A DNA stretch of 64,000 nt, taken from positions 232,674-296,673 of the forward strand of contig CAYSFB010000001.1 in assembly GCA_964430735.1 (NCBI GenBank). The letters are read 5' to 3'. The DNA comes from an uncultured Planctomycetia bacterium (GTDB lineage: Bacteria > Omnitrophota > Gorgyraeia > 2-02-FULL-51-18 > JAGOUK01). Within the stretch, counting starts at the first letter, position 1; each line of letters starts with the position of its first letter. The position numbers were made by a program, and so were the translations under genes. Positions 9,925 to 46,154 of this stretch are shown in pieces. A model generated the notes under the pieces. It did not search any database. It was not told the DNA's origin and saw nothing but the letters and a program-made list of their open reading frames with translations.

Positions 9925-10353
9925 TTACGGAGTTACGATGGTGCCGGACGGCGTTTCGACCAGCAGCAGGTTTTGGTTCGCCTCGACAATCTCGTCTTCT
10001 TGCGCGGCCGTGAGGTTCTCGCCCAGCGCCGCGATCGATTGCTGCTCCAGAGTCGCTTCTTCGATCTGAGTTTGCGCCTCTTCAACTGCCGCATTGAGCG
10101 CCGCGCGCTCGGAGTCCGTAATGCTGGAATCCGCCAATTTCGTCATTACCGCCGCCAAAGCCTCTTCCGCAAGCACACGGCCGTAGGACTTCAATCCGGC
10201 TTGGGCGTCCGCCTGGGTGTAGGGGCGGTAGGTCCCTGAGCCCTCGTCAAAAAACACCTTGTACGGGTTCTCGAAGGTCGGCTTCAGCGAAGCGGCCATC
10301 CCGGGCGCCGCGATTCCCAAACACAGAGCGAGAATCAATGCTGATTTTTTCAT
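9925..10353 (-). CDS. secreted hypothetical protein
   Basis: Signal peptide MKKSALILALCLGIAAPGMAAS; Ala/Glu-rich helical C-terminal half; no recognisable family. Confidence 0.5.
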   Translation of the reverse strand: MKKSALILALCLGIAAPGMAASLKPTFENPYKVFFDEGSGTYRPYTQADAQAGLKSYGRVLAEEALAAVMTKLADSSITDSERAALNAAVEEAQTQIEEATLEQQSIAALGENLTAAQEDEIVEANQNLLLVETPSGTIVTP

Positions 10354-11225
10354 GATTTGCTCCCGGTAGTCTTTTCATCCATGCTCAAGCTGAACATCAG
10401 TTCACCAGAAAAATTATGCACCTTTGTGCTGCCGTCCGGCTCAAGTGTTCCCACGGACATGACAGAATCGGGTCCCTCCAAACGGAACGTGAGCGGCGCA
10501 AAATCCGGTTGCAGCACCAACGTTTCCCCCGGAATCAGGCTTCTAAATTCACGGCCGGAAGCCGTAGGAACCGCGATCTCGGCCTTCTGTGCATGCAACA
10601 CGCGAAGGGTTTCTTGTGACTTCCTGTCGGAGCGCAAATAGTCAATCGCGGGACCCAGCTTGGCGATGACTTTGGCCGCACCGCGGGGAATCAATGAATG
10701 CGTCTTGATCTTTTCGGATCCGGAAACCAGCGCCGTGCTGCCGGACTCGAGGCTGATTTCCGGCTCACCGCCGACGGGGCGGATTCGGGCAGGGCGGCTG
10801 GAGTTGGCCAGCGAAACGAACGTGCTGTTCGCGCGGCTGAAAAGATAAATGTCGCCGAATCCGTTATCGGTCACGACCTCGAACTTTTCGGTCGCCAACG
10901 CGAGTCTTGGAGCGTCGCGGACGATCAGCTCGCCGACACGGAGTGTAATCTTGGTCTCCTGGAGCAATAGGGAGGAATTCTGAAATATTTGAAGATATCC
11001 ACCGCTGGCTTTTTGAAGAAAAAGCACCCCGCCCACATCGACGGTAATGCGCTCATCATCCAGCTTGGTCTGGGGAAGTAGCGTGCTGACCGCCTTACCC
11101 TGAACATCCGTGGTATAAGCGCCCGAAGCATACAAAACCTCGTACTCGGCTGCCTGGGCTGGCGCCGTTAGTCCAAGACTTATTAAAAACAAACCGATCG
11201 AGAAGCGTAAGGCCTTCATACTCAT
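10350..11225 (-). CDS. secreted hypothetical protein (alternative leaderless start at 11219)
   Basis: Signal peptide MKALRFSIGLFLISLGLTAPAQAA. The first ATG (11225) lies 1 nt after a TATAAT box; the third codon (ATG 11219) is 7 nt after it. Confidence 0.5.
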   Translation of the reverse strand: MSMKALRFSIGLFLISLGLTAPAQAAEYEVLYASGAYTTDVQGKAVSTLLPQTKLDDERITVDVGGVLFLQKASGGYLQIFQNSSLLLQETKITLRVGELIVRDAPRLALATEKFEVVTDNGFGDIYLFSRANSTFVSLANSSRPARIRPVGGEPEISLESGSTALVSGSEKIKTHSLIPRGAAKVIAKLGPAIDYLRSDRKSQETLRVLHAQKAEIAVPTASGREFRSLIPGETLVLQPDFAPLTFRLEGPDSVMSVGTLEPDGSTKVHNFSGELMFSLSMDEKTTGSKS

Positions 11226-11226
11226 A

Positions 11227-11254
11227 ATTATACATTTTTGTATATTAGAGTCAA
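11227..11254 (-). promoter_or_regulatory. near-consensus sigma70 promoter TTGACT-16-TATAAT
   Basis: Minus-strand reading gives ccaTTGACTctaatatacaaaaatgTATAATtATGAGTATG. The -10 ends 7 nt before ATG 11219, suggesting a leaderless transcript. Confidence 0.45.
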
Positions 11255-11295
11255 TGGAAGATTACTATAATATTAAATGTAAAAGCGGGTGGGCT

Positions 11296-13155
11296 CTAAG
11301 CGAACTTTTGCTCTTGCCAGGCCTGGTAGAACTTCCCCCTTAGAGCGAGCAGGTCGTCCATCGCGCCGGATTCCAGAGCTTTACCGTCTTCCATGTAGAC
11401 GATATGGTCGGCGTTTCGGATGGTCGAGAGCCGATGGGCAACCACAACGGCTGTTTGACCATGCATTAGCTCGTTTAACGCTTCTTGGACCAAGTTCTCT
11501 GTTCCCGAATCCAAAGCGCTGGTGGCTTCATCTAAAAGAAGGATTTGGGACTTTTTTAACATCGCGCGAGCGATCGATACGCGCTGACGTTCTCCTCCAG
11601 ACAGCGTAACGCCCCGCTCGCCAATCACGGTATGGATCCCGTCAGGGAGCTTCTGGACCACATCCAAAAGCCGGGCGCGTCGGATCGCTTCTTCGAGTTC
11701 GCCCGCATCCACGTCGCGCTCGATACCGAAGAGGAGATTGTTTTTGAGGGTGTCCGCAAAAATCACCACATCCTGACTGACCCAGGCAACCCTCCTTCGC
11801 AGCGAGTCGATCGAATATTCCCGGATATCGATCCCGTCAATCAGAATCGCGTCCGGCGCGCAGTCATAGAAGCGCAGTAAAAGATGAATGATGGTTGATT
11901 TGCCGGCCCCACTGGGTCCGACCAGCGCCGTCATTTTTCCGCGCGGCAGCTTGAGATGAAGCCGCTTCAAAATCGGCTGACCGCCGCCGTAGCCGAATGT
12001 AAGATCTTTGACCTCGATCCCCTGCTTCAGAGACTCGAACTCCCGGACTCCGCCCTTCACATACGGTTTTCCCTCATCTTCCAAAACCTCGAGCACTTCG
12101 CGGATCGGGCTGGCAACCGATGCCAAATCGGCCTTGAACTGGTTGAAGACATGGACGGTGTAAATCATGCGTCTGAGAATATAAAAGAAGACGATGTAGG
12201 AAGCCGCCGATGCGGCCTGATGCCGGGCCATCAGCACCGACATGAAGCCGAGCATGATCAGCAAAAAAACCAGCGAAAGAATTTCCTGGGCCGGCGGAAC
12301 GATCAGCCGCTTTTGATCAATGCTGAATTCGGCGGTGAGGAGCCGCTCGCTCAGGCGACGGTATTCGGCCGTCTCGAGCTTTTCGGAACACTGGGATTGG
12401 ATCAGCGGAATCCCTTGAAGGATATTCACCGTTTTTTGGCTGAGAGCGGCGCGCGCCGAGCGGTCGGCTTCCGAGGATGTTTTAATCCGGTTGATGAGCG
12501 ATCGAAGTGAGAGCATGAGGAGCGGGATCATCAGCAACGCCACCAGCGTCAGCTGCCAGGAGATGATGCAGATCCCCGCCGCATAAATCAGAATCAGGAA
12601 CACGGCGCTCAACAGTCCGTTCAGACCAGAAAGCGCCTGCATGATGCGGACCGGATGGGTCATCAGCACTTGAGCCACTTCGCCGGTGCCGGCGCGGTCA
12701 AAATAAAGCTTTCCGAATTTGAGGTACCGATCGATCAGGAGTATCCGGAGATCGTGATTGAGCTTTCTGGCCTGATGCCAAAGAATAATTTGACTGAGGT
12801 AGGTCGCCAGACTCTTCAGAGTCATGGCCGCCACGAGCGCCAGAATCAGCAGTGCAAAAAGAGCGGTATTGGAAGACTGGGCCTCCGCCGGAAGCAGAGC
12901 GGTCACGTGCCGGATCATCGACGATTGATTCACGAATGAATAGTCGTGGGCCAAAAAACCCTGGATCAGCGGCGTCATCACAATCAGGGCCATCGCCTCG
13001 AAGGCGGAAGCGGCCAGCGCAAAGAACACCGGAACCATGATGTGTTCCGGACGCGCTTTGAGCGCCGACAAGAACTTGACTACTTTGATCGAGCCCTCGT
13101 AGAGCGCGTTCTTATTTTTCATGTTTGAAGACAAACTGGGGTAGTTTTTGAACAT
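11296..13155 (-). CDS. fused TMD-NBD ABC exporter (MsbA/PglK-like) within polysaccharide locus
   Basis: Six-TM N-terminal domain; Walker A GPSGAGKST; signature LSGGERQRVSIARAML; Walker B ILLLDEATSALD. An alternative ATG at 13122 (MKNKNALYEG) would reduce overlap with the upstream GT2 gene. Confidence 0.8.
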   Translation of the reverse strand: MFKNYPSLSSNMKNKNALYEGSIKVVKFLSALKARPEHIMVPVFFALAASAFEAMALIVMTPLIQGFLAHDYSFVNQSSMIRHVTALLPAEAQSSNTALFALLILALVAAMTLKSLATYLSQIILWHQARKLNHDLRILLIDRYLKFGKLYFDRAGTGEVAQVLMTHPVRIMQALSGLNGLLSAVFLILIYAAGICIISWQLTLVALLMIPLLMLSLRSLINRIKTSSEADRSARAALSQKTVNILQGIPLIQSQCSEKLETAEYRRLSERLLTAEFSIDQKRLIVPPAQEILSLVFLLIMLGFMSVLMARHQAASAASYIVFFYILRRMIYTVHVFNQFKADLASVASPIREVLEVLEDEGKPYVKGGVREFESLKQGIEVKDLTFGYGGGQPILKRLHLKLPRGKMTALVGPSGAGKSTIIHLLLRFYDCAPDAILIDGIDIREYSIDSLRRRVAWVSQDVVIFADTLKNNLLFGIERDVDAGELEEAIRRARLLDVVQKLPDGIHTVIGERGVTLSGGERQRVSIARAMLKKSQILLLDEATSALDSGTENLVQEALNELMHGQTAVVVAHRLSTIRNADHIVYMEDGKALESGAMDDLLALRGKFYQAWQEQKFA

Positions 13156-14514: not shown

Positions 14515-15696
14515 TCAGGACGCCAACCGCTCCAGCGCTTCGGCGGCGGGATTGCTCCGCTCGTCCCAACTCAAATGTTCGAGAACATAGTCGTGCCCGG
14601 TTCGGCCCATCGCTTCGGCGCGAAGCGGATCGGCGAGTAAACGGTTCACCGCTTCCACAAGCGCCTCCGGGTCCGGCGACGCAATCAGCCCCATCGCGCC
14701 GTCCAGCTGCGGCCAGCCGCATCCGGGAGACGCAACGACCGGAATGCCGTAGCTGAGGGCCTCGGGGATCGTCAACGGCTTATCGTCCGCTGACGGCAAT
14801 ACGAACAAATCCGCCGAGCAGAACATTTCCTCTTTGGCTTTGCCGGCCACCGCGCCGGCAAAAGTCACGCTCCGGTCCAGTCCGAGCCGGGCGACCTCGT
14901 TCCGGATCTGCCGCATGTAATCCTTGTCTTCGACGGGTCCCGCGGCGATCAGCCTGGCATCAGGATTCTTCGCCAAAATCCCCGGCATGGCGCCAATCAG
15001 ATGAACGAGTCCTTTCTTCGGGTGAATCCGCCCCAGATAAAGAATGACGGATTCGCCGGCCTGGCGGCTGTGACGGGCGGCTTCGCGCTTTTCGCGGGCG
15101 GCCTTCACGGCGGCGCGATGTGTGCGCGGCAGATAGACACTCCGGTCGGGGTGCCGGATTCCGCTGCGATCCATGATGCCGAACTCGTCCTCGCGCATGA
15201 CAAAAACGGCACGTGCACGGTCGAGATTGTTTTTTTCGAACAGATTCCAATAAATTTTTTTCCGCAAAGGCTTCTGAGCCAGACTCCAGGGGGTCAGCAT
15301 GTTGTGTGTGAACACAACGTACGGAATACCCCTTCGGGCGCACTCGGCGGCGGCAAACGTGCACGGAAATCTCCACAAGCCGTGGATGCACACCATTTGA
15401 GAGCGCTCCGCCAGCACCCGGAACCGGCTCACAAAATCGGGCGAATACGCCAAAGGCAAGCCTGAAGCACCAGCCAGCCGGACCGGAATATCGACGGTCC
15501 GGCCGCCGGCCGGACGGATGCAAACACGCTCGGTTCCGCCCAAGCCCGGGGCTCCGATCGCCAGAATCGTCACCGCGTGACCGCGGGTTCGCAATGCCGC
15601 GGACAATTCGCCGATCAGCTCGACGGGCCCGCCGACCTGCGGCCCCCAATAGGAGACCACCTGAAGCACGTTCAGACGGCGCGCGTCCGGACTCAT
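14515..15696 (-). CDS. glycosyltransferase family 4 (GT-B)
   Basis: N-terminal domain LNVLQVVSYWGPQVGG and C-terminal EGLG-like motif. Start set at the ATGA overlap (15693-15696) with the upstream gene's stop. Confidence 0.8.
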   Translation of the reverse strand: MSPDARRLNVLQVVSYWGPQVGGPVELIGELSAALRTRGHAVTILAIGAPGLGGTERVCIRPAGGRTVDIPVRLAGASGLPLAYSPDFVSRFRVLAERSQMVCIHGLWRFPCTFAAAECARRGIPYVVFTHNMLTPWSLAQKPLRKKIYWNLFEKNNLDRARAVFVMREDEFGIMDRSGIRHPDRSVYLPRTHRAAVKAAREKREAARHSRQAGESVILYLGRIHPKKGLVHLIGAMPGILAKNPDARLIAAGPVEDKDYMRQIRNEVARLGLDRSVTFAGAVAGKAKEEMFCSADLFVLPSADDKPLTIPEALSYGIPVVASPGCGWPQLDGAMGLIASPDPEALVEAVNRLLADPLRAEAMGRTGHDYVLEHLSWDERSNPAAEALERLAS

Positions 15697-17015
15697 GTCC
15701 GCAAGCCTGCGGCCCATTTTCGGCCGCGCTTGGTCATTCCAAAATAATCACGGCGAACCCACAGCAGCAAAAAACACGGCCAAAACGCCATCCCCGTCCA
15801 CGCGATGACTCCGGGCAGATCGCCTCCGCGCAAGAGCGGTATCAGCACCGCGCAAAAAATGGCCTGCACCATAAGACCCGGGAACGGCCGGATCTCAAGG
15901 CTGTAATTCATAATCGCGGCAAAAAGCGCTCCATAAATCACGGACAGCAGCAAAATACCGATCCATCCGCCCTCCGCATAAAATGTTCCGATCAAAGTCG
16001 GAGAAATTCCCACCGTCCCCTGCCCGTCATCGATCGTCCAGCCCAATTTATTCATATACCCGCCGACGGGTTTGTTGTGCCACCAGGCGCGCGGAATCGG
16101 TCTCAGGAGCACTTCCAGATGCTCGCCTCCTTTGGAGTACGGAAGCATCTTGGGGTAAATTTGCCGCAACATGACGAACCCGTCCAGCATATTGGCGTCT
16201 TCCGCCTGGATGGCCCGCTGTATCGACAAGTCTTTGAGAGCTTGAGATTGGTCGTAAGTTTTAATGGTGCGCACGCTTCCAGAAGCCGAAAAAGCCGTCA
16301 ACGCCGCGACGCCGACCAAGGCATAAACGATGACCTTGATGCGGGGCTGAAGCCCCGCGGTCACGACCATTGCAGACGCGATGATCCATCCCAGTAATTG
16401 GAAACGTCCGTAAGGCTGGAACGTCTGAAAAATAAAGGCGATCACAACCATGAGCCCGAGAGACTGGGTCAGCGGAATCCTGAAATATCCGAACTTCCAC
16501 AGCAAAACGGTCAGCAGCATGATGCCGATCATGACCATGGGAAACAGGGACAGGTATCCGCTGATATCAAACGCCTGCGAAGCGCCTTGAATCACCTGCT
16601 CCATCACCTGGCGGCGCAGCATGATCACCATAGGCAGACATGCCGCCCCGAACAGCAGAACTTGGGGTCCAAGCCAGTTTAAAAAAGCCCGGTCCGGCAC
16701 CGTTCGCAAAATATGCACCGGCTTTCGGCGTGCAAAACAGTACGTGATCAGTAAAATCGTCTGCCCGAGGATGATATAGAGCAGCGCTTCGCGGGCCGCC
16801 TCGGAAGAGATTGGATCAAAACTCCATTCGTCTGACATGACCACCCAACGGCCGATGCCCGACGTCGCCGAAAAATAACGGTAAGCGCCCGAATACAAAA
16901 GGAAGCTGCTGATGATGAGCGGGACGACGTCGTTCATGCTAATCAACCAATACATCCCAAAAACCGTCAGAACGACCTGGATCCCTAGAAGAATGTCAAA
17001 ATCAAGTATGGGCAT
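15693..17015 (-). CDS. wzy: Wzy-like oligosaccharide repeat-unit polymerase (polytopic membrane protein)
   Basis: About 10-11 TM helices plus one large periplasmic loop with RPIPRAWWHNKP; no nucleotide-binding motifs. Trimmed to ATG 17015 (MPILDFDILLG), which overlaps the upstream stop. Confidence 0.6.
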   Translation of the reverse strand: MPILDFDILLGIQVVLTVFGMYWLISMNDVVPLIISSFLLYSGAYRYFSATSGIGRWVVMSDEWSFDPISSEAAREALLYIILGQTILLITYCFARRKPVHILRTVPDRAFLNWLGPQVLLFGAACLPMVIMLRRQVMEQVIQGASQAFDISGYLSLFPMVMIGIMLLTVLLWKFGYFRIPLTQSLGLMVVIAFIFQTFQPYGRFQLLGWIIASAMVVTAGLQPRIKVIVYALVGVAALTAFSASGSVRTIKTYDQSQALKDLSIQRAIQAEDANMLDGFVMLRQIYPKMLPYSKGGEHLEVLLRPIPRAWWHNKPVGGYMNKLGWTIDDGQGTVGISPTLIGTFYAEGGWIGILLLSVIYGALFAAIMNYSLEIRPFPGLMVQAIFCAVLIPLLRGGDLPGVIAWTGMAFWPCFLLLWVRRDYFGMTKRGRKWAAGLRT

Positions 17016-18225
17016 CGCATGCTCCGATAAGTTGACGCCCCAACCGGCTGATTCCGGACCCGGATGGCAAAACCGACCGGTCCGACTGTGCCTTGAGCCG
17101 GGAAGGATTAAGGAGATAGGACCGCAGCGCATCGGCGACGGCCTTCCCGCTGATCTCCCTGAGAACCGTGCCGTTTTCTCCGTCCCTCACAACAGCGCCG
17201 CAACGATCCGAAACGATCAGCGGCAGACGGTGCGCCTGCGCTTCAAGCTGCGTCAGGGCAAACCCGTCGGAGTGCGTCGGCAAAATAAAGACGTCCGCAG
17301 CCCGGTAATGGCCGGCCGCTTCCAACCGGCTCACCCGGCCCCGAAGACGCACGTTGGCGCATCCGGCAAAAAGCCCGTTCACGGCCGCATCCGCCGGACC
17401 CACGACGGAGAATTCAACCGGCTGCCCCTCAAGCATCCGGGCCGCCTCCGCCAACTCGGCCGCACCTTTCCGGAGACCCACCTGGCCCAAAAAAAGAACG
17501 CGCAAAGGGCGGTCGTGCGAAAAAGTCGGAGGATAGGAACGGGGGGCTAAGGATGCGGATCCGGCAGAATCATAAGCCAGCGGGATGGTGACGATTTTAC
17601 GCGCCGGCACTCCGGCCCGCCGCAATCCCTGGGCGGACCAATCGGAATTGACGATGATGATGTCGGCGAGGGCAGTTTCTTCGCGCCAATCGTCCCAATA
17701 GCCGGACGGGACGGGGTCAGGGGCCGGGACAATCCCAGCGTACTTGGCGTACAACTCGCGGACAATCTCTTCCTCATACGGACCTGGATCGATTTGACCC
17801 AGCACCGTCGTCCAGCCCGAGGCCTTGGCAAAACGGAACGGCTTCAGCGCCGTATAGCTGTAAGAAAATAGAATCTGGCGATTTTTTTTTGATTCCGAAA
17901 CGAGCCCGGACAATCGGGCAACACACCGGTCCTGGAACCAGCGGTTGCGGGCCAGAACCTGCGCCCAGCCCCGGACACCTTTGAGCCGCAACCCGCCTTC
18001 GAGCGCAAGCAGACGGCCGGTGAATGCGTGGACAGGGGCCGACGCCAGAGCGGAATCGAACCGTCCCTTTAAGGCGTTTGAATGGGCCCACACGGATTTG
18101 GGCCGAACCCAAGCGTCGGTAAGCAAAGCGCTGAGCCGGGACTCGAGATGCAGCGCGCGGGGAATCGCATAATGCTCCCGCGCGCCCAACTGGCAACAAA
18201 TCCAGGATCGGGACCGGTCAGACAT
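17002..18225 (-). CDS. glycosyltransferase family 4 (GT-B)
   Basis: GT-B C-terminal domain with ...FILPTHSDGFALTQLEAQAHRLPLIVSDRCG. Trimmed to ATG 18225 (MSDRSRSWICC). Confidence 0.75.
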   Translation of the reverse strand: MSDRSRSWICCQLGAREHYAIPRALHLESRLSALLTDAWVRPKSVWAHSNALKGRFDSALASAPVHAFTGRLLALEGGLRLKGVRGWAQVLARNRWFQDRCVARLSGLVSESKKNRQILFSYSYTALKPFRFAKASGWTTVLGQIDPGPYEEEIVRELYAKYAGIVPAPDPVPSGYWDDWREETALADIIIVNSDWSAQGLRRAGVPARKIVTIPLAYDSAGSASLAPRSYPPTFSHDRPLRVLFLGQVGLRKGAAELAEAARMLEGQPVEFSVVGPADAAVNGLFAGCANVRLRGRVSRLEAAGHYRAADVFILPTHSDGFALTQLEAQAHRLPLIVSDRCGAVVRDGENGTVLREISGKAVADALRSYLLNPSRLKAQSDRSVLPSGSGISRLGRQLIGACDAHT

Positions 18226-35857: not shown

Positions 35858-35933
35858 TGGTGAGACCGCTGGGGATCGAACCCAGGACACCTTCCTTAAA
35901 AGGGAAGTGCTCTACCAACTGAGCTACGGTCTC
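35858..35933 (-). tRNA. tRNA-Lys (anticodon UUU), CCA encoded
   Basis: Minus-strand sequence GAGACCGTAGCTCAGTTGGTAGAGCACTTCCCTTTTAAGGAAGGTGTCCTGGGTTCGATCCCCAGCGGTCTCACCA folds as a canonical cloverleaf: 7-bp acceptor, GCTC/GAGC D-stem, CTTCC/GGAAG anticodon stem, loop CTTTTAA, TTCGATC T-loop. Confidence 0.9.
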
Positions 35934-40767: not shown

Positions 40768-41715
40768 ATGTCCCGACTTCGAGTGGGTGTGGTCGGATGC
40801 GGAGTCCTCGGCTCCCGCCACGCCGAAATTTATCGCCAGCTTCCGGACGTCGACGTCGTCGCCGTCGTGGATCCCCTTCCCGAAAAAGCCGAAGCGCTCG
40901 CCAAGGCCGTCGGCGCGCGGGCTTTTTCGCGCATCGAGGACTGCATCGGTCTGATCGACGCGGCCAGCGTCTGCACGCCGGCCGTCAGCCACCACCAGGT
41001 CACCCGCCCCCTGCTCCAGGCCGGCGTGCACGTGCTGGTCGAAAAGCCCATCACCACGCGCCTCGAGGACGCCGACGACCTCATCGCCCTCGCCGGGGCC
41101 AAAAAGGCGATCCTCCAGATCGGCCACATCGAACGCTTCAACGGCGCCGTCAGCACCGTCAAAAAACTCGCACAGGATCCCGTCTTCATCGAATGCGACC
41201 GCATCGGCCCTTACGACCCGCGCATCAGCGACGTCGGCGTCGTCCTGGACCTCATGATCCACGACATCGACATCGTCCTCGACCTGGTCCAGTCGCCGGT
41301 GACTTCGGTCGAAGCGGTCGGCATGAACCTTTTTTCGGAACGCGAAGACTTCGCCCACGGCCGCATCCTCTTCCGGAACGGCGCGGTCGCCAGTCTGACC
41401 GCCAGCCGCATGGCCCAGAAGCGCCTGCGCAAGATCCGCATCTTCGACAAACATCAGTACTTCTCGCTCGACTACTTCCAGCAGGAGCTCATGACCCTCA
41501 CCCGCCAGCGTGCGGCCGAAGGCCGGACCGCGTACGAGCCCGTCCCCGTCACCAAGTCCCAGCCGCTCGAAGAAGAAGTGAAGAACTTCGTTTCCTGCGT
41601 CCGCGGCGGTCAGGTGCGCGGCGTTTCGGGTGCCGACGGACGCGCGGCGCTGGCCGTCGCCCTCCAGATCCTCGACCAGATCCAGCGCAAAAAAGTTGAA
41701 AAAATCTCCGTCTGA
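40768..41715 (+). CDS. Gfo/Idh/MocA-family NAD(P)-dependent oxidoreductase
   Basis: Rossmann N-terminus VGVVGCGVLGSRHAEIY plus the EKP motif (VLVEKPIT). Confidence 0.8.
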   Translation: MSRLRVGVVGCGVLGSRHAEIYRQLPDVDVVAVVDPLPEKAEALAKAVGARAFSRIEDCIGLIDAASVCTPAVSHHQVTRPLLQAGVHVLVEKPITTRLEDADDLIALAGAKKAILQIGHIERFNGAVSTVKKLAQDPVFIECDRIGPYDPRISDVGVVLDLMIHDIDIVLDLVQSPVTSVEAVGMNLFSEREDFAHGRILFRNGAVASLTASRMAQKRLRKIRIFDKHQYFSLDYFQQELMTLTRQRAAEGRTAYEPVPVTKSQPLEEEVKNFVSCVRGGQVRGVSGADGRAALAVALQILDQIQRKKVEKISV

Positions 41716-42838
41716 CGGAAAAAAAATCCTGATCATCACCGGCGAAGCGTCCGGCGACCAGCTCGGCGCCGCGCTTGCCGTTTCGCTCCGGGAGATCGAT
41801 CCGGCCGTCCGGCTGCACGGCGTCGGCGGCTCCAAGATGGAAGCGCTCCGCCTGGACAGCTTCCGGTCGAGCGGAACCTCGCACGCCACGGGACTCACCG
41901 AAGTGCTCAAGCATCTGCCCGAATACTTCCGGCTGTTCCAACAGATCCTCGAAGACATCCGCACGATCCGTCCCGACCTCATCGTTCTGGTCGACAACCC
42001 CGGCTTCAACCTGCGCCTCGCCAAAAAATTGCTGCCGTCCGGAATTCCCGTCGTCGGCTACGTCTCCCCCCAGGTCTGGGCCTGGAAGGAAGGCCGGACC
42101 CGGACGATGGCCAAAGTTTTCAAAAAAGTCCTGACGCTGTTCGACTTCGAAGAGGATTTTTTGGAAAAGCGCGGCGTGAAGGCCAAGTGGGTGGGACATC
42201 CGATCGTCGAAGCCTGGCCGGCCGACCCGGGCCGCGCCCCCGAGCGGGATGCCGCTCCGGCGCAACGAATCCTGCTCCTGCCGGGCTCGCGTCCGCACGA
42301 AGTCCGGAAGCTCCTCCCGGTCATGCTGGAAGCCGCCGGGCGTATTTCCAAAAAATATCCGGACATCCGGTGGTCGCTCCTGGAAGCCGACACGCTGCCC
42401 GACGCTTTTTACGCGCCTCTTTTGGCCCCGGCTGCCGGCCCCCGCCTCGAACGCGTCCGCGGCGGCGACAAGCAAAAGCTTTTTCTAAAGTCCGACCTGG
42501 CCTGGGCCTGCTCCGGCACCGTCACGCTCGAATGCGCGCTCGCCCAGCTCCCCAGCATCATCGGCTACCGCACCTCCACAATCACCGTCGTCATCGCCCG
42601 CTTCCTGGTGAAGGTCAAATATCTCGGCATGCCCAACCTCCTGGCCGGCAAAGAAATCATGCCCGAACTCCTCCAAGAAAAATTCACCCCGGAAAATCTA
42701 GAGTCCCTGACGCTGAACTGGCTCCAAAACCCCTCCGCCCTCGCCCTCTCCCGCTCTTCTCTCTCGTCCATCCGCCCCCACCTAGGCGCCCCCGGCTCTG
42801 CGCAGCGCGCCGCCCACGAACTCCTCTCGCTCATCTGA
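41696..42838 (+). CDS. lpxB: lipid-A-disaccharide synthase
   Basis: KKILIITGEASGDQLGAALAVSLRE N-terminal motif and GT-B fold. Start tentatively the TTG at 41696, a 20-nt overlap with the oxidoreductase; the track maximum is 41630. Confidence 0.8.
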   Translation: MKKSPSDGKKILIITGEASGDQLGAALAVSLREIDPAVRLHGVGGSKMEALRLDSFRSSGTSHATGLTEVLKHLPEYFRLFQQILEDIRTIRPDLIVLVDNPGFNLRLAKKLLPSGIPVVGYVSPQVWAWKEGRTRTMAKVFKKVLTLFDFEEDFLEKRGVKAKWVGHPIVEAWPADPGRAPERDAAPAQRILLLPGSRPHEVRKLLPVMLEAAGRISKKYPDIRWSLLEADTLPDAFYAPLLAPAAGPRLERVRGGDKQKLFLKSDLAWACSGTVTLECALAQLPSIIGYRTSTITVVIARFLVKVKYLGMPNLLAGKEIMPELLQEKFTPENLESLTLNWLQNPSALALSRSSLSSIRPHLGAPGSAQRAAHELLSLI

Positions 42839-43197: not shown

Positions 43198-44583
43198 TTA
43201 TAGTGTGGGAAGGTCTTTCTTGAGCTCGTACTGGGAGATGTGGTGGCGGTAGTTTTCCCACTCGATTTCTTTGTTTTCGATCAGCGAGTGGAAAATGTGG
43301 TCGCCCAGCGCCTCGCGGAGGAACTTGGACTTGCGTGCGACTTCGATCGCTTCGCCCAGGCTCGTCGGCATTTCTTCGACGCCGGCCTTCGCTTTTTCTT
43401 CGCGGGACCAGCTGACGACGTCGCCTTCGGCGGCTTTGGGAAGCTTGTACTTTTGCTCGATGCCCTTCAGACCCGCGGCCAGCATCGTGCTGAACGCGAG
43501 GTACGGGTTGCAGGCCGGGTCCGGCGAGCGGAATTCGGCGCGGGCCGTTTCGTCGCGGCCGGCCTTGTTGGCCGGGATGCGGACGAGGGCAGAGCGGTTT
43601 TTCTGCCCCCAGAGGATGTGCGTGGGCGCTTCGTAGCCGGTCACGAGCCGCTTGTAGGAATTGACCCACTGGTTGGTCACGATCGCCATTTCGCGCGAGT
43701 GGCGGAGGAGGCCGGCGACATAGGCCTTGGCCACCGGCGACATCTGGGCCTTGTCGCGCGCGTCGTAGAACGCGTTGCGCTCGGCGACGCCCTTGCGCGC
43801 CGCGTGGAACAGCGACTGGTGCACGTGCATGCCGCTGCCGTTCTGGCCTTCGATCGGCTTGGGCATGAAGGTCGCGTGAACGCCGTTGCGCAGCGCGATC
43901 TCTTTGGCGGTCAGGCGGTACGTCATCACGCTGTCGGCCATCGTGAGCGCGTCCATGTGCTTGAGGTCAATCTCGTGCTGGCCCGGGGCCACTTCGTGGT
44001 GGCTCGAATGGACGGGAATCCCCATCTCCTCGAGCGTCAGCACCGTCTGGCGGCGCATGTCGCTGCCGGTATCGAGCGGCGTCAGGTCAAAATAGCCGCC
44101 CTGGTCGGTGGGCTCGGGCTTGTCGGTCGACTTGAAATAAAAGAACTCGATTTCGGGTCCGACGTAAAACGTGAAGCCGAGCTGGGCCGCGCGCTTGAGC
44201 TGGCGCTTGAGGCAGTGCCGCGGGTCGCCCTCGAAGGGGCGGCCGTCCATGTGATGGATGTCAGCGAACATGCGGGCCACGGCGTTCTCGCGCGGGCGCC
44301 ACGGCAGGACCTGGAAGGTCTTCGGGTCGCAGACGGCGATCATGTCGTGCTCTTCGGCGCGGGCGAAGCTTTCGATCGACGAGCCGTCGACGCCGACGCC
44401 CTCCTCGAGGGCCTTGTCGAGCGCGTCGATGGTGATCGCGAAGCTTTTCAGGAAGCCGAGGATGTCGGTGAACCAGATGCGGATGAATTTGACGTCATGC
44501 TCACGGGCCTGCTGGGTCAAAAAGACGGCGGCGTCGCGGCGGGCTTTGGCTCCGGAACGGGAAGGGCTGGTTTGGGGGCTCAT
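43198..44583 (-). CDS. glnA: glutamine synthetase type I
   Basis: VKFIRIWFTDILG beta-grasp N-terminus, catalytic core ...NGSGMHVHQSLF..., and adenylylation-region-like C-terminus. Start set at ATG 44583 (AAGGAAAC RBS); an alternative ATG is at 44598. Confidence 0.9.
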   Translation of the reverse strand: MSPQTSPSRSGAKARRDAAVFLTQQAREHDVKFIRIWFTDILGFLKSFAITIDALDKALEEGVGVDGSSIESFARAEEHDMIAVCDPKTFQVLPWRPRENAVARMFADIHHMDGRPFEGDPRHCLKRQLKRAAQLGFTFYVGPEIEFFYFKSTDKPEPTDQGGYFDLTPLDTGSDMRRQTVLTLEEMGIPVHSSHHEVAPGQHEIDLKHMDALTMADSVMTYRLTAKEIALRNGVHATFMPKPIEGQNGSGMHVHQSLFHAARKGVAERNAFYDARDKAQMSPVAKAYVAGLLRHSREMAIVTNQWVNSYKRLVTGYEAPTHILWGQKNRSALVRIPANKAGRDETARAEFRSPDPACNPYLAFSTMLAAGLKGIEQKYKLPKAAEGDVVSWSREEKAKAGVEEMPTSLGEAIEVARKSKFLREALGDHIFHSLIENKEIEWENYRHHISQYELKKDLPTL

Positions 44584-44611
44584 AAGTTTCCTTTTCATGC
44601 TCCAGAAGGGG

Positions 44612-45301
44612 TCAGTCGGAGTCGGGTTGAATGAATTTGTAGCCGATGTTCCGGACCGTCTCGATAAAGGCGCGCTTCTTGATCTCGATCTTGGACCGCA
44701 GGCGGCGGACGTGAACGTCGACCGTCCGGGCTCCGCCGAAGTACTCATAACCCCAGACCTTGTTGAGCAGCGCGTCGCGGTCGAAGACCTGGCCCGGATG
44801 GCTGGCCAGGAACTTGAGCAATTGATATTCGGTGTAGGTCAGATCGACCTTGTCCCCGCCCACGCGGACTTCATAACGGCCGATGTCGATTTCGAGGTCG
44901 CCGGAGATGATGACGTTTTTGTCGGTGATCCGGTGGAATTTTTTGTAGGCAAGGACGAGGCGCGCGACGCATTCCTCGACCCGGAGCGGACGGGTGAACA
45001 CATCGTACACGCCGGCCGGGATCTGAAAGGACGGATGCGCCAGCTCCTTCACGTCGAGCACGGCGAACAGCGGAAGTTCGGCGAGCGCTTTTTCGGACTT
45101 GATGCGCTCGCAGACGGCGAGAAGGGCGGCGGAAGAAGCGGCGGAAGCCACGAGAAGCTCGGGCTTGGCTTTGGCGGCCAGATCGGCCGTGACGTCTTTG
45201 ACGGCCGCCTGACGGCTGACAAAATGCGGCGAGTCTTTGAGCGCCTGCTGAAGGGCTTTGAGGTCGTCGGAATCCGATATCAACAAAACTTTGGCGTTCA
45301 T
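44612..45301 (-). CDS. OmpR-family winged-helix regulator with atypical (Asp-less) receiver domain
   Basis: C-terminal trans_reg_C domain (LTYTEYQLLKFLASHPGQVFDRDALLNKVWG...RTVDVHVRRLR). In the receiver-like N-terminus the acidic pocket DSDD is present, but the phospho-acceptor position reads PELLVAS instead of DLVLLD. Confidence 0.7.
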   Translation of the reverse strand: MNAKVLLISDSDDLKALQQALKDSPHFVSRQAAVKDVTADLAAKAKPELLVASAASSAALLAVCERIKSEKALAELPLFAVLDVKELAHPSFQIPAGVYDVFTRPLRVEECVARLVLAYKKFHRITDKNVIISGDLEIDIGRYEVRVGGDKVDLTYTEYQLLKFLASHPGQVFDRDALLNKVWGYEYFGGARTVDVHVRRLRSKIEIKKRAFIETVRNIGYKFIQPDSD

Positions 45302-45311
45302 GCTGCTTTTC

Positions 45312-46154
45312 CTATGATCCGATGAGAACGATTCCGAGCCGGTCGGCCAGAGTGACCATTTTACCCGGATCCGCCAGAAGTGTCCTTCCTTTTTCGGCGC
45401 ACACGGCGGCGAACCCGGCGCGGGCGGCGCGCTCGATCGTCTCTTCGCCGAGCACGGGCATGTCGAATCGGAGGTCCTGTTGGGGTTTGGCCGTCTTGAC
45501 CAGCACCGCGCCATGGATCCCCAGCGCTCCGACCCGGTCGATCATCGCGTCCGTGCCCTCGATCCCTTCGACCGCGATCACAGTCCCGCCGCGGATCGCG
45601 ACGGCCTGACCGATGTCGAGGCGGCCCACGGCACGGGCTTTTTTGAGACCGACGGCGATGTCCGACTTCATCTGGTCGTCCGGAGCGAGGCGGCCGAGGA
45701 TACGGCCGGGCGCGATCCACTGAGGCAGAAGCTCGTGAATCCCGAACACGCGAATCCCCTGCACGCGCAGAAAAGCCGAGAGCGCCTTGAGGATCTGATG
45801 GTCGCCTTTTTCGCGGCCGGCGGTCCGGATCACGGTCCCGGACACTTCGTCGGGCTTGAATCCGGGGTCATAAATTTTGCGTTTGACGATTTTACCCACG
45901 AACGTCACCCGGCGGATCGCCCGCGACTTGACGGCTTCCAGCGCCTTGGCGCCCTCGCTCACGGATACTTCAAGGAGCTCATCCGCGAACGGACCAAACA
46001 CATCGCTCGAATCCCGCTCCACGCTGATGACAAGCACCTTAGCCCCGGCGCGGCGCAATTCCTCGGCGGCGCGCACGGCGAACCCGCCGCGGCCCGCGAC
46101 CAGCGCGACCCGCTCGCCTTTTTTGATCGGTTGGGCTCCCCGCCAGACCGGCAT
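45312..46154 (-). CDS. lpxI: UDP-2,3-diacylglucosamine pyrophosphatase LpxI (DUF1009)
   Basis: DUF1009 two-domain architecture (VALVAGRGGFAVRAAEE ... GTDAMIDRVG); located immediately downstream of lpxA. Confidence 0.7.
   Translation of the reverse strand: MPVWRGAQPIKKGERVALVAGRGGFAVRAAEELRRAGAKVLVISVERDSSDVFGPFADELLEVSVSEGAKALEAVKSRAIRRVTFVGKIVKRKIYDPGFKPDEVSGTVIRTAGREKGDHQILKALSAFLRVQGIRVFGIHELLPQWIAPGRILGRLAPDDQMKSDIAVGLKKARAVGRLDIGQAVAIRGGTVIAVEGIEGTDAMIDRVGALGIHGAVLVKTAKPQQDLRFDMPVLGEETIERAARAGFAAVCAEKGRTLLADPGKMVTLADRLGIVLIGS

Follow-up and report, generated by a model that had tools for sequence, protein, structure and literature searches.

What does a response regulator control when its receiver domain has lost the residues used for phosphorylation, and when its gene is wedged between genes for lipid A synthesis and the gene for glutamine synthetase (GS)? 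This question is raised by a gene on the minus strand at positions 44612 to 45301 of a 64-kb stretch of Omnitrophota DNA (contig CAYSFB010000001.1; hereafter the window). An initial annotation described its product as an atypical OmpR-family regulator of the ChxR/HsrA kind, possibly transcribed together with envelope genes. Based on the analysis reported here, we regard it as fairly likely that the protein is a kinase-independent OmpR-type factor that oligomerizes on tandem GTAAC repeats spanning the -35 region, activates the promoters of nitrogen uptake and assimilation genes and is expressed with glnA. Observed in the analysis were the fold, the lost residues, the lack of a kinase, the neighbors that are conserved and, in relatives, the repeat arrays.

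A receiver fold without the phosphorylation residues

The sole domain that Pfam found in the protein was Trans_reg_C (PF00486; amino acids [aa] 149 to 223, E 2e-27), in keeping with the initial annotation, which had assigned it to the OmpR family on the strength of a canonical winged helix. Response_reg (PF00072), a model that does detect a few of the relatives, gave no match to the regulator even at E<=10, and the substitution at the acceptor position is shown by other alignments. The full-length NCBIfam matches, to PhoB, MtrA and NblR, fell well short of the threshold (116 bits, with a cut-off of 296). The protein was modeled with AlphaFold2 from 115 homologues; the model had a mean predicted local distance difference test (pLDDT) score of 88.9 and, together with the alignments, defines the following features.

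44612..45301, minus strand: regulator gene, atypical OmpR/PhoB family, 229 aa, pseudo-receiver plus winged helix (open reading frame and translation, Pfam, AlphaFold2)
44927..45301, minus strand: pseudo-receiver domain, aa 1 to 125, a five-unit beta-alpha fold without phosphorylation residues (AlphaFold2)
44633..44857, minus strand: winged helix-turn-helix DNA-binding domain, aa 149 to 223 (Pfam, Foldseek)
45143..45145, minus strand: codon of Ser53 (in PELLVAS), phospho-acceptor position at the end of beta3 (alignments and AlphaFold2)
45053..45055, minus strand: codon of Asp83, at the T+1 position at the end of beta4, a conserved acidic residue of the family (AlphaFold2 and PhoB alignment)
44990..44992, minus strand: codon of Arg104, in place of the conserved receiver Lys, the next Pro being kept (alignment with PhoB Lys105)

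In the model, the receiver elements run in the order beta1 (residues 3 to 8), alpha1 (15 to 23), beta2 (27 to 32), alpha2 (39 to 45), beta3 (49 to 53), alpha3 (57 to 74), beta4 (78 to 83), a short alpha4 (84 to 87), beta5 (98 to 104) and alpha5 (108 to 122). Over its full length the model matched GlnR, RpaA, PhoP, MtrA and KdpE in Foldseek searches, and its DNA-binding domain superimposed on those of GlnR, VicR, YycF and PhoB with a root mean square deviation (rmsd) of 1.3 to 2.0 Å. Of the features of the OmpR/PhoB subfamily, the winged helix and the receiver fold are present and the phosphorylation residues are missing. The protein begins MNAKVLLISDSDD (translation of 44612 to 45301); the ATG at 45301 was taken as the start because the homologues share both the start residue (equivalent to MNAKVLL in the alignment) and the length (226 to 233 aa), on which grounds a longer open reading frame reaching 45514 was rejected.

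The initial annotation had reported that the acceptor Asp is replaced within PELLVAS, and three independent alignments and the model all place Ser53 at this site. It aligns with Asp50 of Saccharopolyspora erythraea GlnR and with Asp53 of PleD domain 1 (HMMER) and with Asp53 of Escherichia coli PhoB (MAFFT). Structurally, Ser53 is the C-terminal end of strand beta3, which is the acceptor site in the receiver fold. The loss extends beyond what had been recognized before: judged from the alignment, Leu82 replaces the conserved Thr (PhoB Thr83 equivalent), Val101 replaces the switch Tyr (PhoB Tyr102 equivalent) and Arg104 replaces the conserved Lys. The five phosphorylation positions therefore read Ser9, Asp10, Ser53, Leu82 and Arg104. 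The acidic pocket (DSDD) that the initial annotation considered present is retained in part, since Asp10 aligns with PhoB Asp10; however, the partner of this residue is Ser9, and Asp12 and Asp13 are lineage specific, with Asn and Gln there in most relatives. The Asp in AVLDVKE, a nearby residue that might have taken over the acceptor role, is Asp83, and it was ruled out as a substitute acceptor, lying at the end of beta4 at T+1, one residue beyond the conserved Thr position.

These replacements recur throughout the family. The homologue set comprised the best 120 of 6894 matches, which were 44 to 94% identical and nearly all of which had a winged-helix Pfam match only. Among 115 Omnitrophota homologues, position 53 was Asn in 94, Ser in 17, Asp in 3 and Val in 1; position 82 was never Thr or Ser (0/115); position 104 was Arg in 104 and Lys in 11; and position 83 was Asp in 91 and Glu in 8. 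Because 16 homologues with 80 to 94% identity retain Ser53, this residue is neither an error nor a chance substitution. On the evidence of these sequences, the receiver residues form a stable alternative constellation and are not the product of decay, and the comparisons support the conclusion that the receiver cannot take the usual Asp phosphorylation. Atypical response regulators, or pseudo-receivers, are defined as having the receiver fold without one or more of the catalytic residues (PMC12632262); here, the receiver fold is kept and the catalytic residues are replaced. Among pseudo-receivers in general, Lys tends to change to Arg and the beta4-alpha4 loop tends to carry additional acidic residues (PMC12632262).

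When the receiver was searched alone, its best PDB sequence match was the second, nonphosphorylated (adaptor) receiver of Caulobacter PleD (E 6e-5), which, like most of the family, has Asn at the acceptor position, an Asp after beta4 and Arg-Pro for Lys-Pro, and which serves in dimerization. The PleD domain is part of a diguanylate cyclase and not of a protein that binds DNA. Its likeness to the regulator receiver is probably convergent or an expression of the general pseudo-receiver trend.

Conserved neighbors of the regulator gene

The genomic context was compared in a survey limited to one genome per species, which yielded 80 loci, 29 atypical and 51 canonical (Firmicutes-type); three further close relatives were also compared. 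All but one of the canonical proteins (50/51) have the full DD/D/T(S)/Y/K set, the exception being L066, which has Gly at the acceptor position. The atypical set comes from Omnitrophota, Dehalococcoidia, Acidimicrobiia and other Actinomycetota and Acidobacteriota and includes S. erythraea GlnR. The conserved Thr is missing from every atypical protein compared (31/31, S. erythraea GlnR included) and many also lack the acceptor Asp; the conserved Lys is kept in four, from Dehalococcoidia L016, L020 and L025 and Omnitrophota L004.

No histidine kinase accompanies these genes. In tblastn searches with 25 kinases taken from the canonical-relative loci, there were 0 matches in the 64-kb window and 0 matches within ~10 kb of any of 32 atypical loci; as a positive control, the same 25 kinases were recovered adjoining the canonical relatives. 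A kinase motif scan of the window was also negative. These negatives apply to the stretches searched, and a kinase may be encoded elsewhere in the genome. The statement in the initial annotation that the window holds no cognate kinase is thereby borne out, and its suggestion that the protein probably acts without phosphorylation gains from the joint replacement of the acceptor, Thr and Lys and from the lack of a kinase partner.

Of the 29 atypical loci, 25 have nitrogen assimilation genes (glnA, or amtB-glnK in L018) in their flanks, and the contigs of the other 4 end within ~300 nucleotides (nt) of the regulator gene. By comparison, glnA was nearby in 1 of the 51 canonical loci. It is on this linkage that control of glnA and amtB-glnK by the regulator is proposed. 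The regulator would be placed in a glnA-linked atypical clade that spans Omnitrophota, Dehalococcoidia, Acidimicrobiia and Acidobacteriota and whose best-studied relative is actinobacterial GlnR.

Gene order varies with the group. In the main Omnitrophota lineage (12 loci, including the three closer relatives), bamA-skp-lpxD-lpxC-fabZ-(lpxA)-lpxI-regulator is followed by glnA and then by convergent lpxB, with amtB-glnK before glnA in some loci and not in others; in the three closer relatives, lpxI, the regulator gene and glnA follow one another in that order. The order in Dehalococcoidia is regulator-amtB-glnK-glnA, without lpx genes, and in the actinobacterial-type group it is glnA-regulator. 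No lpx or bam neighbors were found in the second Omnitrophota group (L011 to L013 and L017), Dehalococcoidia, Acidimicrobiia or Acidobacteriota. Because the gene orders differ in this way, nitrogen assimilation is the partner conserved across phyla, and the lpx neighborhood belongs to a single lineage.

The arrangement in the window is as follows.

45312..46154, minus strand: lpxI, directly upstream of the regulator, with a 10-nt gap (Pfam LpxI_N and LpxI_C)
45358..45386, minus strand: weak sigma-70-like match AGGACA-17-TAAAAT inside lpxI at its 3' end, 57 nt ahead of the regulator ATG (consensus scan, 9/12 matches)
44584..44611, minus strand: 28-nt spacer from the regulator stop to the glnA start, with AAGGAA before the ATG at 44583 (sequence; gene calls on public contigs)
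43198..44583, minus strand: glnA, glutamine synthetase, 461 aa, directly downstream of the regulator (Pfam Gln-synt_N and Gln-synt_C)

In the window, lpxI is the final gene of a bamA-skp-lpxD-lpxC-fabZ-lpxA-lpxI string; it ends at 45312 and the regulator ATG is at 45301, which agrees with the 10-nt gap given in the initial annotation. That annotation was also right to place the gene between glnA and the lpx string; however, it overlooked the fact that glnA, on the same strand, begins only 28 nt after the regulator gene. An identical regulator protein occurs on public Logan contigs, where the gene order and gene calls match those of the window. A terminator scan found no terminator on the regulator strand in the 44584..44611 spacer, and glnA is probably cotranscribed with the regulator. 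Throughout the main Omnitrophota lineage (12/12 loci) the lpxI-regulator junction measures 0 to 20 nt or is a 4-nt overlap; in L084, there is a 4-nt overlap of the lpxI stop with the regulator start, and 0 nt separate the regulator stop from the glnA start. These tight junctions therefore support lpxI-regulator-glnA cotranscription in the lineage. Cotranscription with envelope genes, as the initial annotation had suggested, is thus plausible as far as lpxI is concerned, but the conserved context does not bear out the envelope role that it implied. The element at 45358..45386 is, with low confidence, a possible internal promoter; on inspection of the sequence, no repeat convincingly adjoined this promoter-like site within lpxI.

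Several variants of the layout were noted. The regulator-glnA module, with or without amtB-glnK, lies inside a lipid A cluster that runs from lpxI to convergent lpxB (window 43198 to 46154 and 41630 to 42838), and the same layout was seen in L004, L005, L007, L008, L015, L085 and L086, that is, in all loci of the lineage that reach lpxB. In L005 (10694 to 11706), a pair of genes assigned from sequence alone as ExbB/ExbD-like stands between the regulator and glnA, replacing amtB-glnK. Between glnK (PII) and glnA (11379 to 11450), L006 carries a perfect 17-base-pair (bp) inverted repeat, CCCAGCCCTTCTTTAGA ... TCTAAAGAAGGGCTGGG, with a T-rich run after it; this element has no Rfam match and could be a terminator or attenuator separating amtB-glnK from glnA. 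L005 has a 16-mer, CCCTTCTTTAGAATAG, upstream of glnA in common with this region of L006. In the actinomycetote L021 (8365 to 9848), the glnA that precedes the atypical regulator gene aligns as four pieces that are out of frame, which could represent a pseudogene or long-read frameshift errors.

Repeat arrays in relatives and the comparison with GlnR

In relatives in which amtB follows the regulator gene, the spacer between the two contains two to four, usually three to four, direct repeats of [G/T][T/A]AA[C/T]A with an exact 11-bp period, as exemplified by the L022 array GTAACACAATT GTAACATTGCT GTAATATAGTG GTAATAAACAG. The last repeat unit ends ~4 nt before a -10-like TAnnnT element, and because of this spacing the arrays cover the -35 region. 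Such arrays were present in 12 related loci, four from Omnitrophota (L006, L015, L011 and L012) and eight from Dehalococcoidia (L014, L018, L019, L020, L022, L023, L025 and L026); in L011 and L012, which belong to group 2 of the Omnitrophota, the third unit of the array is GTGAT or GTCAT. Within the atypical loci, the strict three-unit pattern occurred upstream of amt genes only.

The four-unit arrays of the second Omnitrophota group, at 12402 to 12445 in L011 and at 14562 to 14605 and 14963 to 15006 in L012, are not directly before amtB; the one in L011 precedes a gene for a signal-peptide, coiled-coil, beta-barrel-like (porin-like) protein that heads a cluster of amtB, glnK, a GS-like gene and glnA. 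In L025 (9463 to 12880; Chloroflexota), the regulator is followed by three ammonium transporter paralogues in a row, each with its own array of three to four units and a -10-like element.

The array motif of the relatives equals the published GlnR boxes. At the amtB promoter, GlnR boxes consist of a and b sites, typically four, with the consensus GTAAC separated by 6-nt spacers, on which four protomers are bound head to tail (PMC10235972), and the Mycobacterium smegmatis GlnR box is t/gTAAC-n6-Gc/aAAC (PMC10704036). The protein itself also points to GlnR. The best PDB sequence matches were all GlnR (8HIG_A, E 6e-33; 8HIH, E 5e-32; 8HML, E 8.5e-31), the next family following at E 7e-23, and the top Foldseek match was M. 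tuberculosis GlnR (8HIH_N, 34% identity). Of these structures, 8HIH is the M. tuberculosis protein and 8HML that of S. erythraea (PMC10235972), and 8HIG is labeled in the Foldseek table as the S. erythraea GlnR DNA-binding domain. The DNA-binding domain is 52 to 56% identical to those of 8HML and 8HIG, with an rmsd of 1.3 to 1.8 Å. The base-contacting residues of the GlnR recognition helix are Arg186, Val190, Arg193 and Arg194 (PMC10235972); their counterparts in the regulator, Arg192, Val196, Arg199 and Arg200, are identical to those of S. erythraea GlnR. In the WGY..GG.RTVDVH motif, 31/31 atypical proteins, S. erythraea GlnR included, have GG, where 12 of 13 canonical proteins have GD.

Like the actinobacterial GlnR proteins of Streptomyces coelicolor, M. 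tuberculosis (Rv0818) and S. erythraea, which are global nitrogen regulators, the regulator is of the orphan OmpR/PhoB type, without Asp phosphorylation and with a receiver that lacks the conserved Thr and Lys, and its family is linked to glnA, amtB and glnK. The two differ in that GlnR has an acceptor Asp with dimer-stabilizing charge contacts, whereas the regulator has Ser53 and its family mostly Asn; in phylum (Actinomycetota versus Omnitrophota); in that the receivers are only 21% identical, compared with 55% for the DNA-binding domains; and in that the gene studied here is embedded in a lipid A operon and has no binding site found in the window. We therefore describe the regulator as a probable distant relative of GlnR with a predicted GlnR-like function, not as a proven GlnR orthologue.

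The comparison with ChxR and HsrA drawn in the initial annotation holds as an analogy and not as kinship. ChxR of Chlamydia trachomatis shares the general, phosphorylation-free mode of action; it is an atypical OmpR/PhoB regulator that dimerizes, binds direct repeats and activates without phosphorylation (PMC3960148). However, its setting is chlamydial development, with no nitrogen gene context, and it was absent from the best 60 of 71 PDB sequence matches and from the 50 fold matches listed. HsrA (HP1043) of Helicobacter pylori is described as an orphan OmpR-type protein with a highly degenerate receiver that works independently of phosphorylation (PMC8345958, PMC5253667). It differs in being an essential housekeeping regulator whose operator is unlike tandem GTAAC repeats, and its structure (2HQR) ranked 37th in Foldseek, with 22% identity, GlnR being the best match.

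Proposed mode of action and rival explanations

We propose that the regulator is an orphan OmpR/PhoB-family factor that would work without Asp phosphorylation, its N-terminal domain serving as a pseudo-receiver. It would share a transcript with glnA and probably also with lpxI. Several protomers would bind head to tail on tandem GTAAC-type repeats, 11 bp apart, that cover the -35 region of nitrogen assimilation promoters (amtB-glnK and glnA), in an arrangement like that of the solved GlnR-RNA polymerase complex, and we infer that binding leads to activation and not to repression. Nitrogen status might reach the protein through changes in its own abundance, through a protein partner or through modification, since Ser/Thr phosphorylation and Lys acetylation have been reported for GlnR.

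A number of observations weigh against this proposal, the first group of which concerns the operators. The window was scanned with the strict pattern, a position-weight matrix and relaxed patterns, and none of these scans found a GTAAC array near the regulator, glnA or lpx genes; nor was an array found in the other tight lpxI-regulator-glnA loci. The 64-kb window also has no amtB or PII gene, and because there is neither a nearby array nor such a gene, the targets of the window regulator are unseen. In addition, the canonical regulator locus of Sporomusa rhizae (L024), in which the Asp, Thr and Lys are present, carries two to three copies of TTAACA with an 11-bp period (10816, 16134 to 16160 and 17175 to 17201), which shows that tandem repeats of the GTAAC/TTAAC kind also occur outside the atypical clade. 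GTAAC-like half-sites are common to WalR/PhoP-type regulators, hence they are not diagnostic of GlnR, and the shared base-contacting residues do not single out GlnR either, since WalR/PhoP-type regulators have them too. The second group concerns descent. In neighbor-joining trees with limited outgroup sampling, the atypical clade, S. erythraea GlnR included, received 100% bootstrap support over the full length and with the receiver but 6% with the DNA-binding domain alone, this domain is 54% identical to the actinobacterial group and 53% identical to the canonical Firmicutes regulators, and the atypical/canonical split may reflect only the tight clustering of the sampled canonical receivers. 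Finally, actinobacterial GlnR keeps an unphosphorylated acceptor Asp that is required for homodimer stability (PMC12632262), and the regulator is without it.

The sole match in the window, at 11244 to 11276 on the minus strand, reads TTAAT-n6-GTAAT-n6-TTGAC and lies in an AT-rich region, where its third unit is the -35 element of a near-consensus sigma-70 promoter, TTGACT-17-TATAAT. This promoter precedes a gene for a 291-aa secreted protein (10350 to 11225) and then genes for signal-peptide proteins of 142 and 479 aa. The match was rejected as a nitrogen operator, the three downstream genes having no homologue in any nitrogen locus.

Position in the lipid A cluster could instead mean that the regulator is the last gene of a bamA-skp-lpxD-lpxC-fabZ-lpxA-lpxI operon and exerts constitutive, ChxR/HsrA-like housekeeping control over outer membrane and lipid A genes. 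The close lpxI junction persists in all 12 lineage loci down to ~40% protein identity, and the whole regulator-glnA module is enclosed between lpxI and convergent lpxB. However, homologues elsewhere do without lpx and bam genes and have glnA or amtB-glnK wherever the contig extends past the gene, no repeat arrays lie in or upstream of the lpx/bam clusters, and among the sequence and fold matches listed ChxR is missing and HsrA distant; we judge an envelope regulator to be quite improbable. Another possibility is that the regulator is made together with GS and switched by the binding of GS or PII to the pseudo-receiver, perhaps as a repressor or autoregulator and not as an activator in the manner of GlnR. 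There is a precedent in Bacillus, whose glnRA operon encodes a MerR-type GlnR that feedback-inhibited glutamine synthetase activates. In the Omnitrophota lineage, 0 to 28 nt separate the regulator from glnA, many relatives carry the PII gene in the same cluster, and an alternative active-site set (Asp10, Asn/Ser53, Asp83 and Arg104-Pro105) is conserved, which suggests that selection continues to act on the pseudo-receiver surface. Pseudo-receivers are documented to take their input from protein partners and ligands (PMC12632262). Stabilization of a dimer could equally account for the conserved residues, though, and in the relatives the arrays over -35 beside a -10-like element have the layout of an activator site; switching by GS or PII seems unlikely. 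The Bacillus parallel is one of operon layout alone: there, the regulator gene is directly upstream of glnA and cotranscribed with it (PMC9249791), but the MerR-family fold is unrelated to the OmpR/receiver type.

Phosphorylation might, alternatively, have persisted in another form, through Asp83, Asp10 or a Ser/Thr kinase acting on Ser53 as the main switch, with the kinase encoded elsewhere. Asp83 is conserved and near the active site, Asp10 is retained, and S. coelicolor GlnR has been reported to be Ser/Thr phosphorylated (PMC10235972, PMC12632262); against this, none of the acceptor, Thr and Lys residues is preserved, position 53 is occupied in most relatives by Asn and not by Ser, Asp83 sits at T+1 and not at the acceptor position, and no kinase is near any of 32 loci. 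In our judgment, this explanation has very little chance of being correct. A more speculative and rather improbable reading is that the conserved pseudo-receiver set is a new input site that reads nitrogen status directly, by docking of PII or GS or by binding a metabolite, and that placement in the lipid A operon couples glutamine supply to lipid A synthesis in Omnitrophota. The coupling is plausible because GlmS uses glutamine to make UDP-GlcNAc, a lipid A precursor.

Atypical OmpR regulators and GlnR are already well known. In the literature searched, however, we found no description of such a regulator or clade in Omnitrophota, Chloroflexi/Chloroflexota or Dehalococcoides, and none of the regulation of nitrogen assimilation in uncultivated Omnitrophota and Dehalococcoidia. 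The regulator is a candidate master regulator of nitrogen assimilation for these two groups, with a concrete predicted operator (four GTAAC units, 11 bp spacing, before amtB), and it suggests that control of glnA and amtB without a kinase, in the manner of GlnR, reaches beyond Actinobacteria. The regulators also form a natural series in which the acceptor position is Asp, Asn, Ser, Glu, His or Thr, and this series could serve to examine how pseudo-receivers stay active. For the window itself, the gain is mainly an improved annotation.

An Rfam search at the gathering threshold, covering the window and four loci, revealed no riboswitch or leader upstream of glnA and gave tRNAs only; the window carries a tRNA gene at 35861 to 35933 on the minus strand (RF00005, 72 bits).

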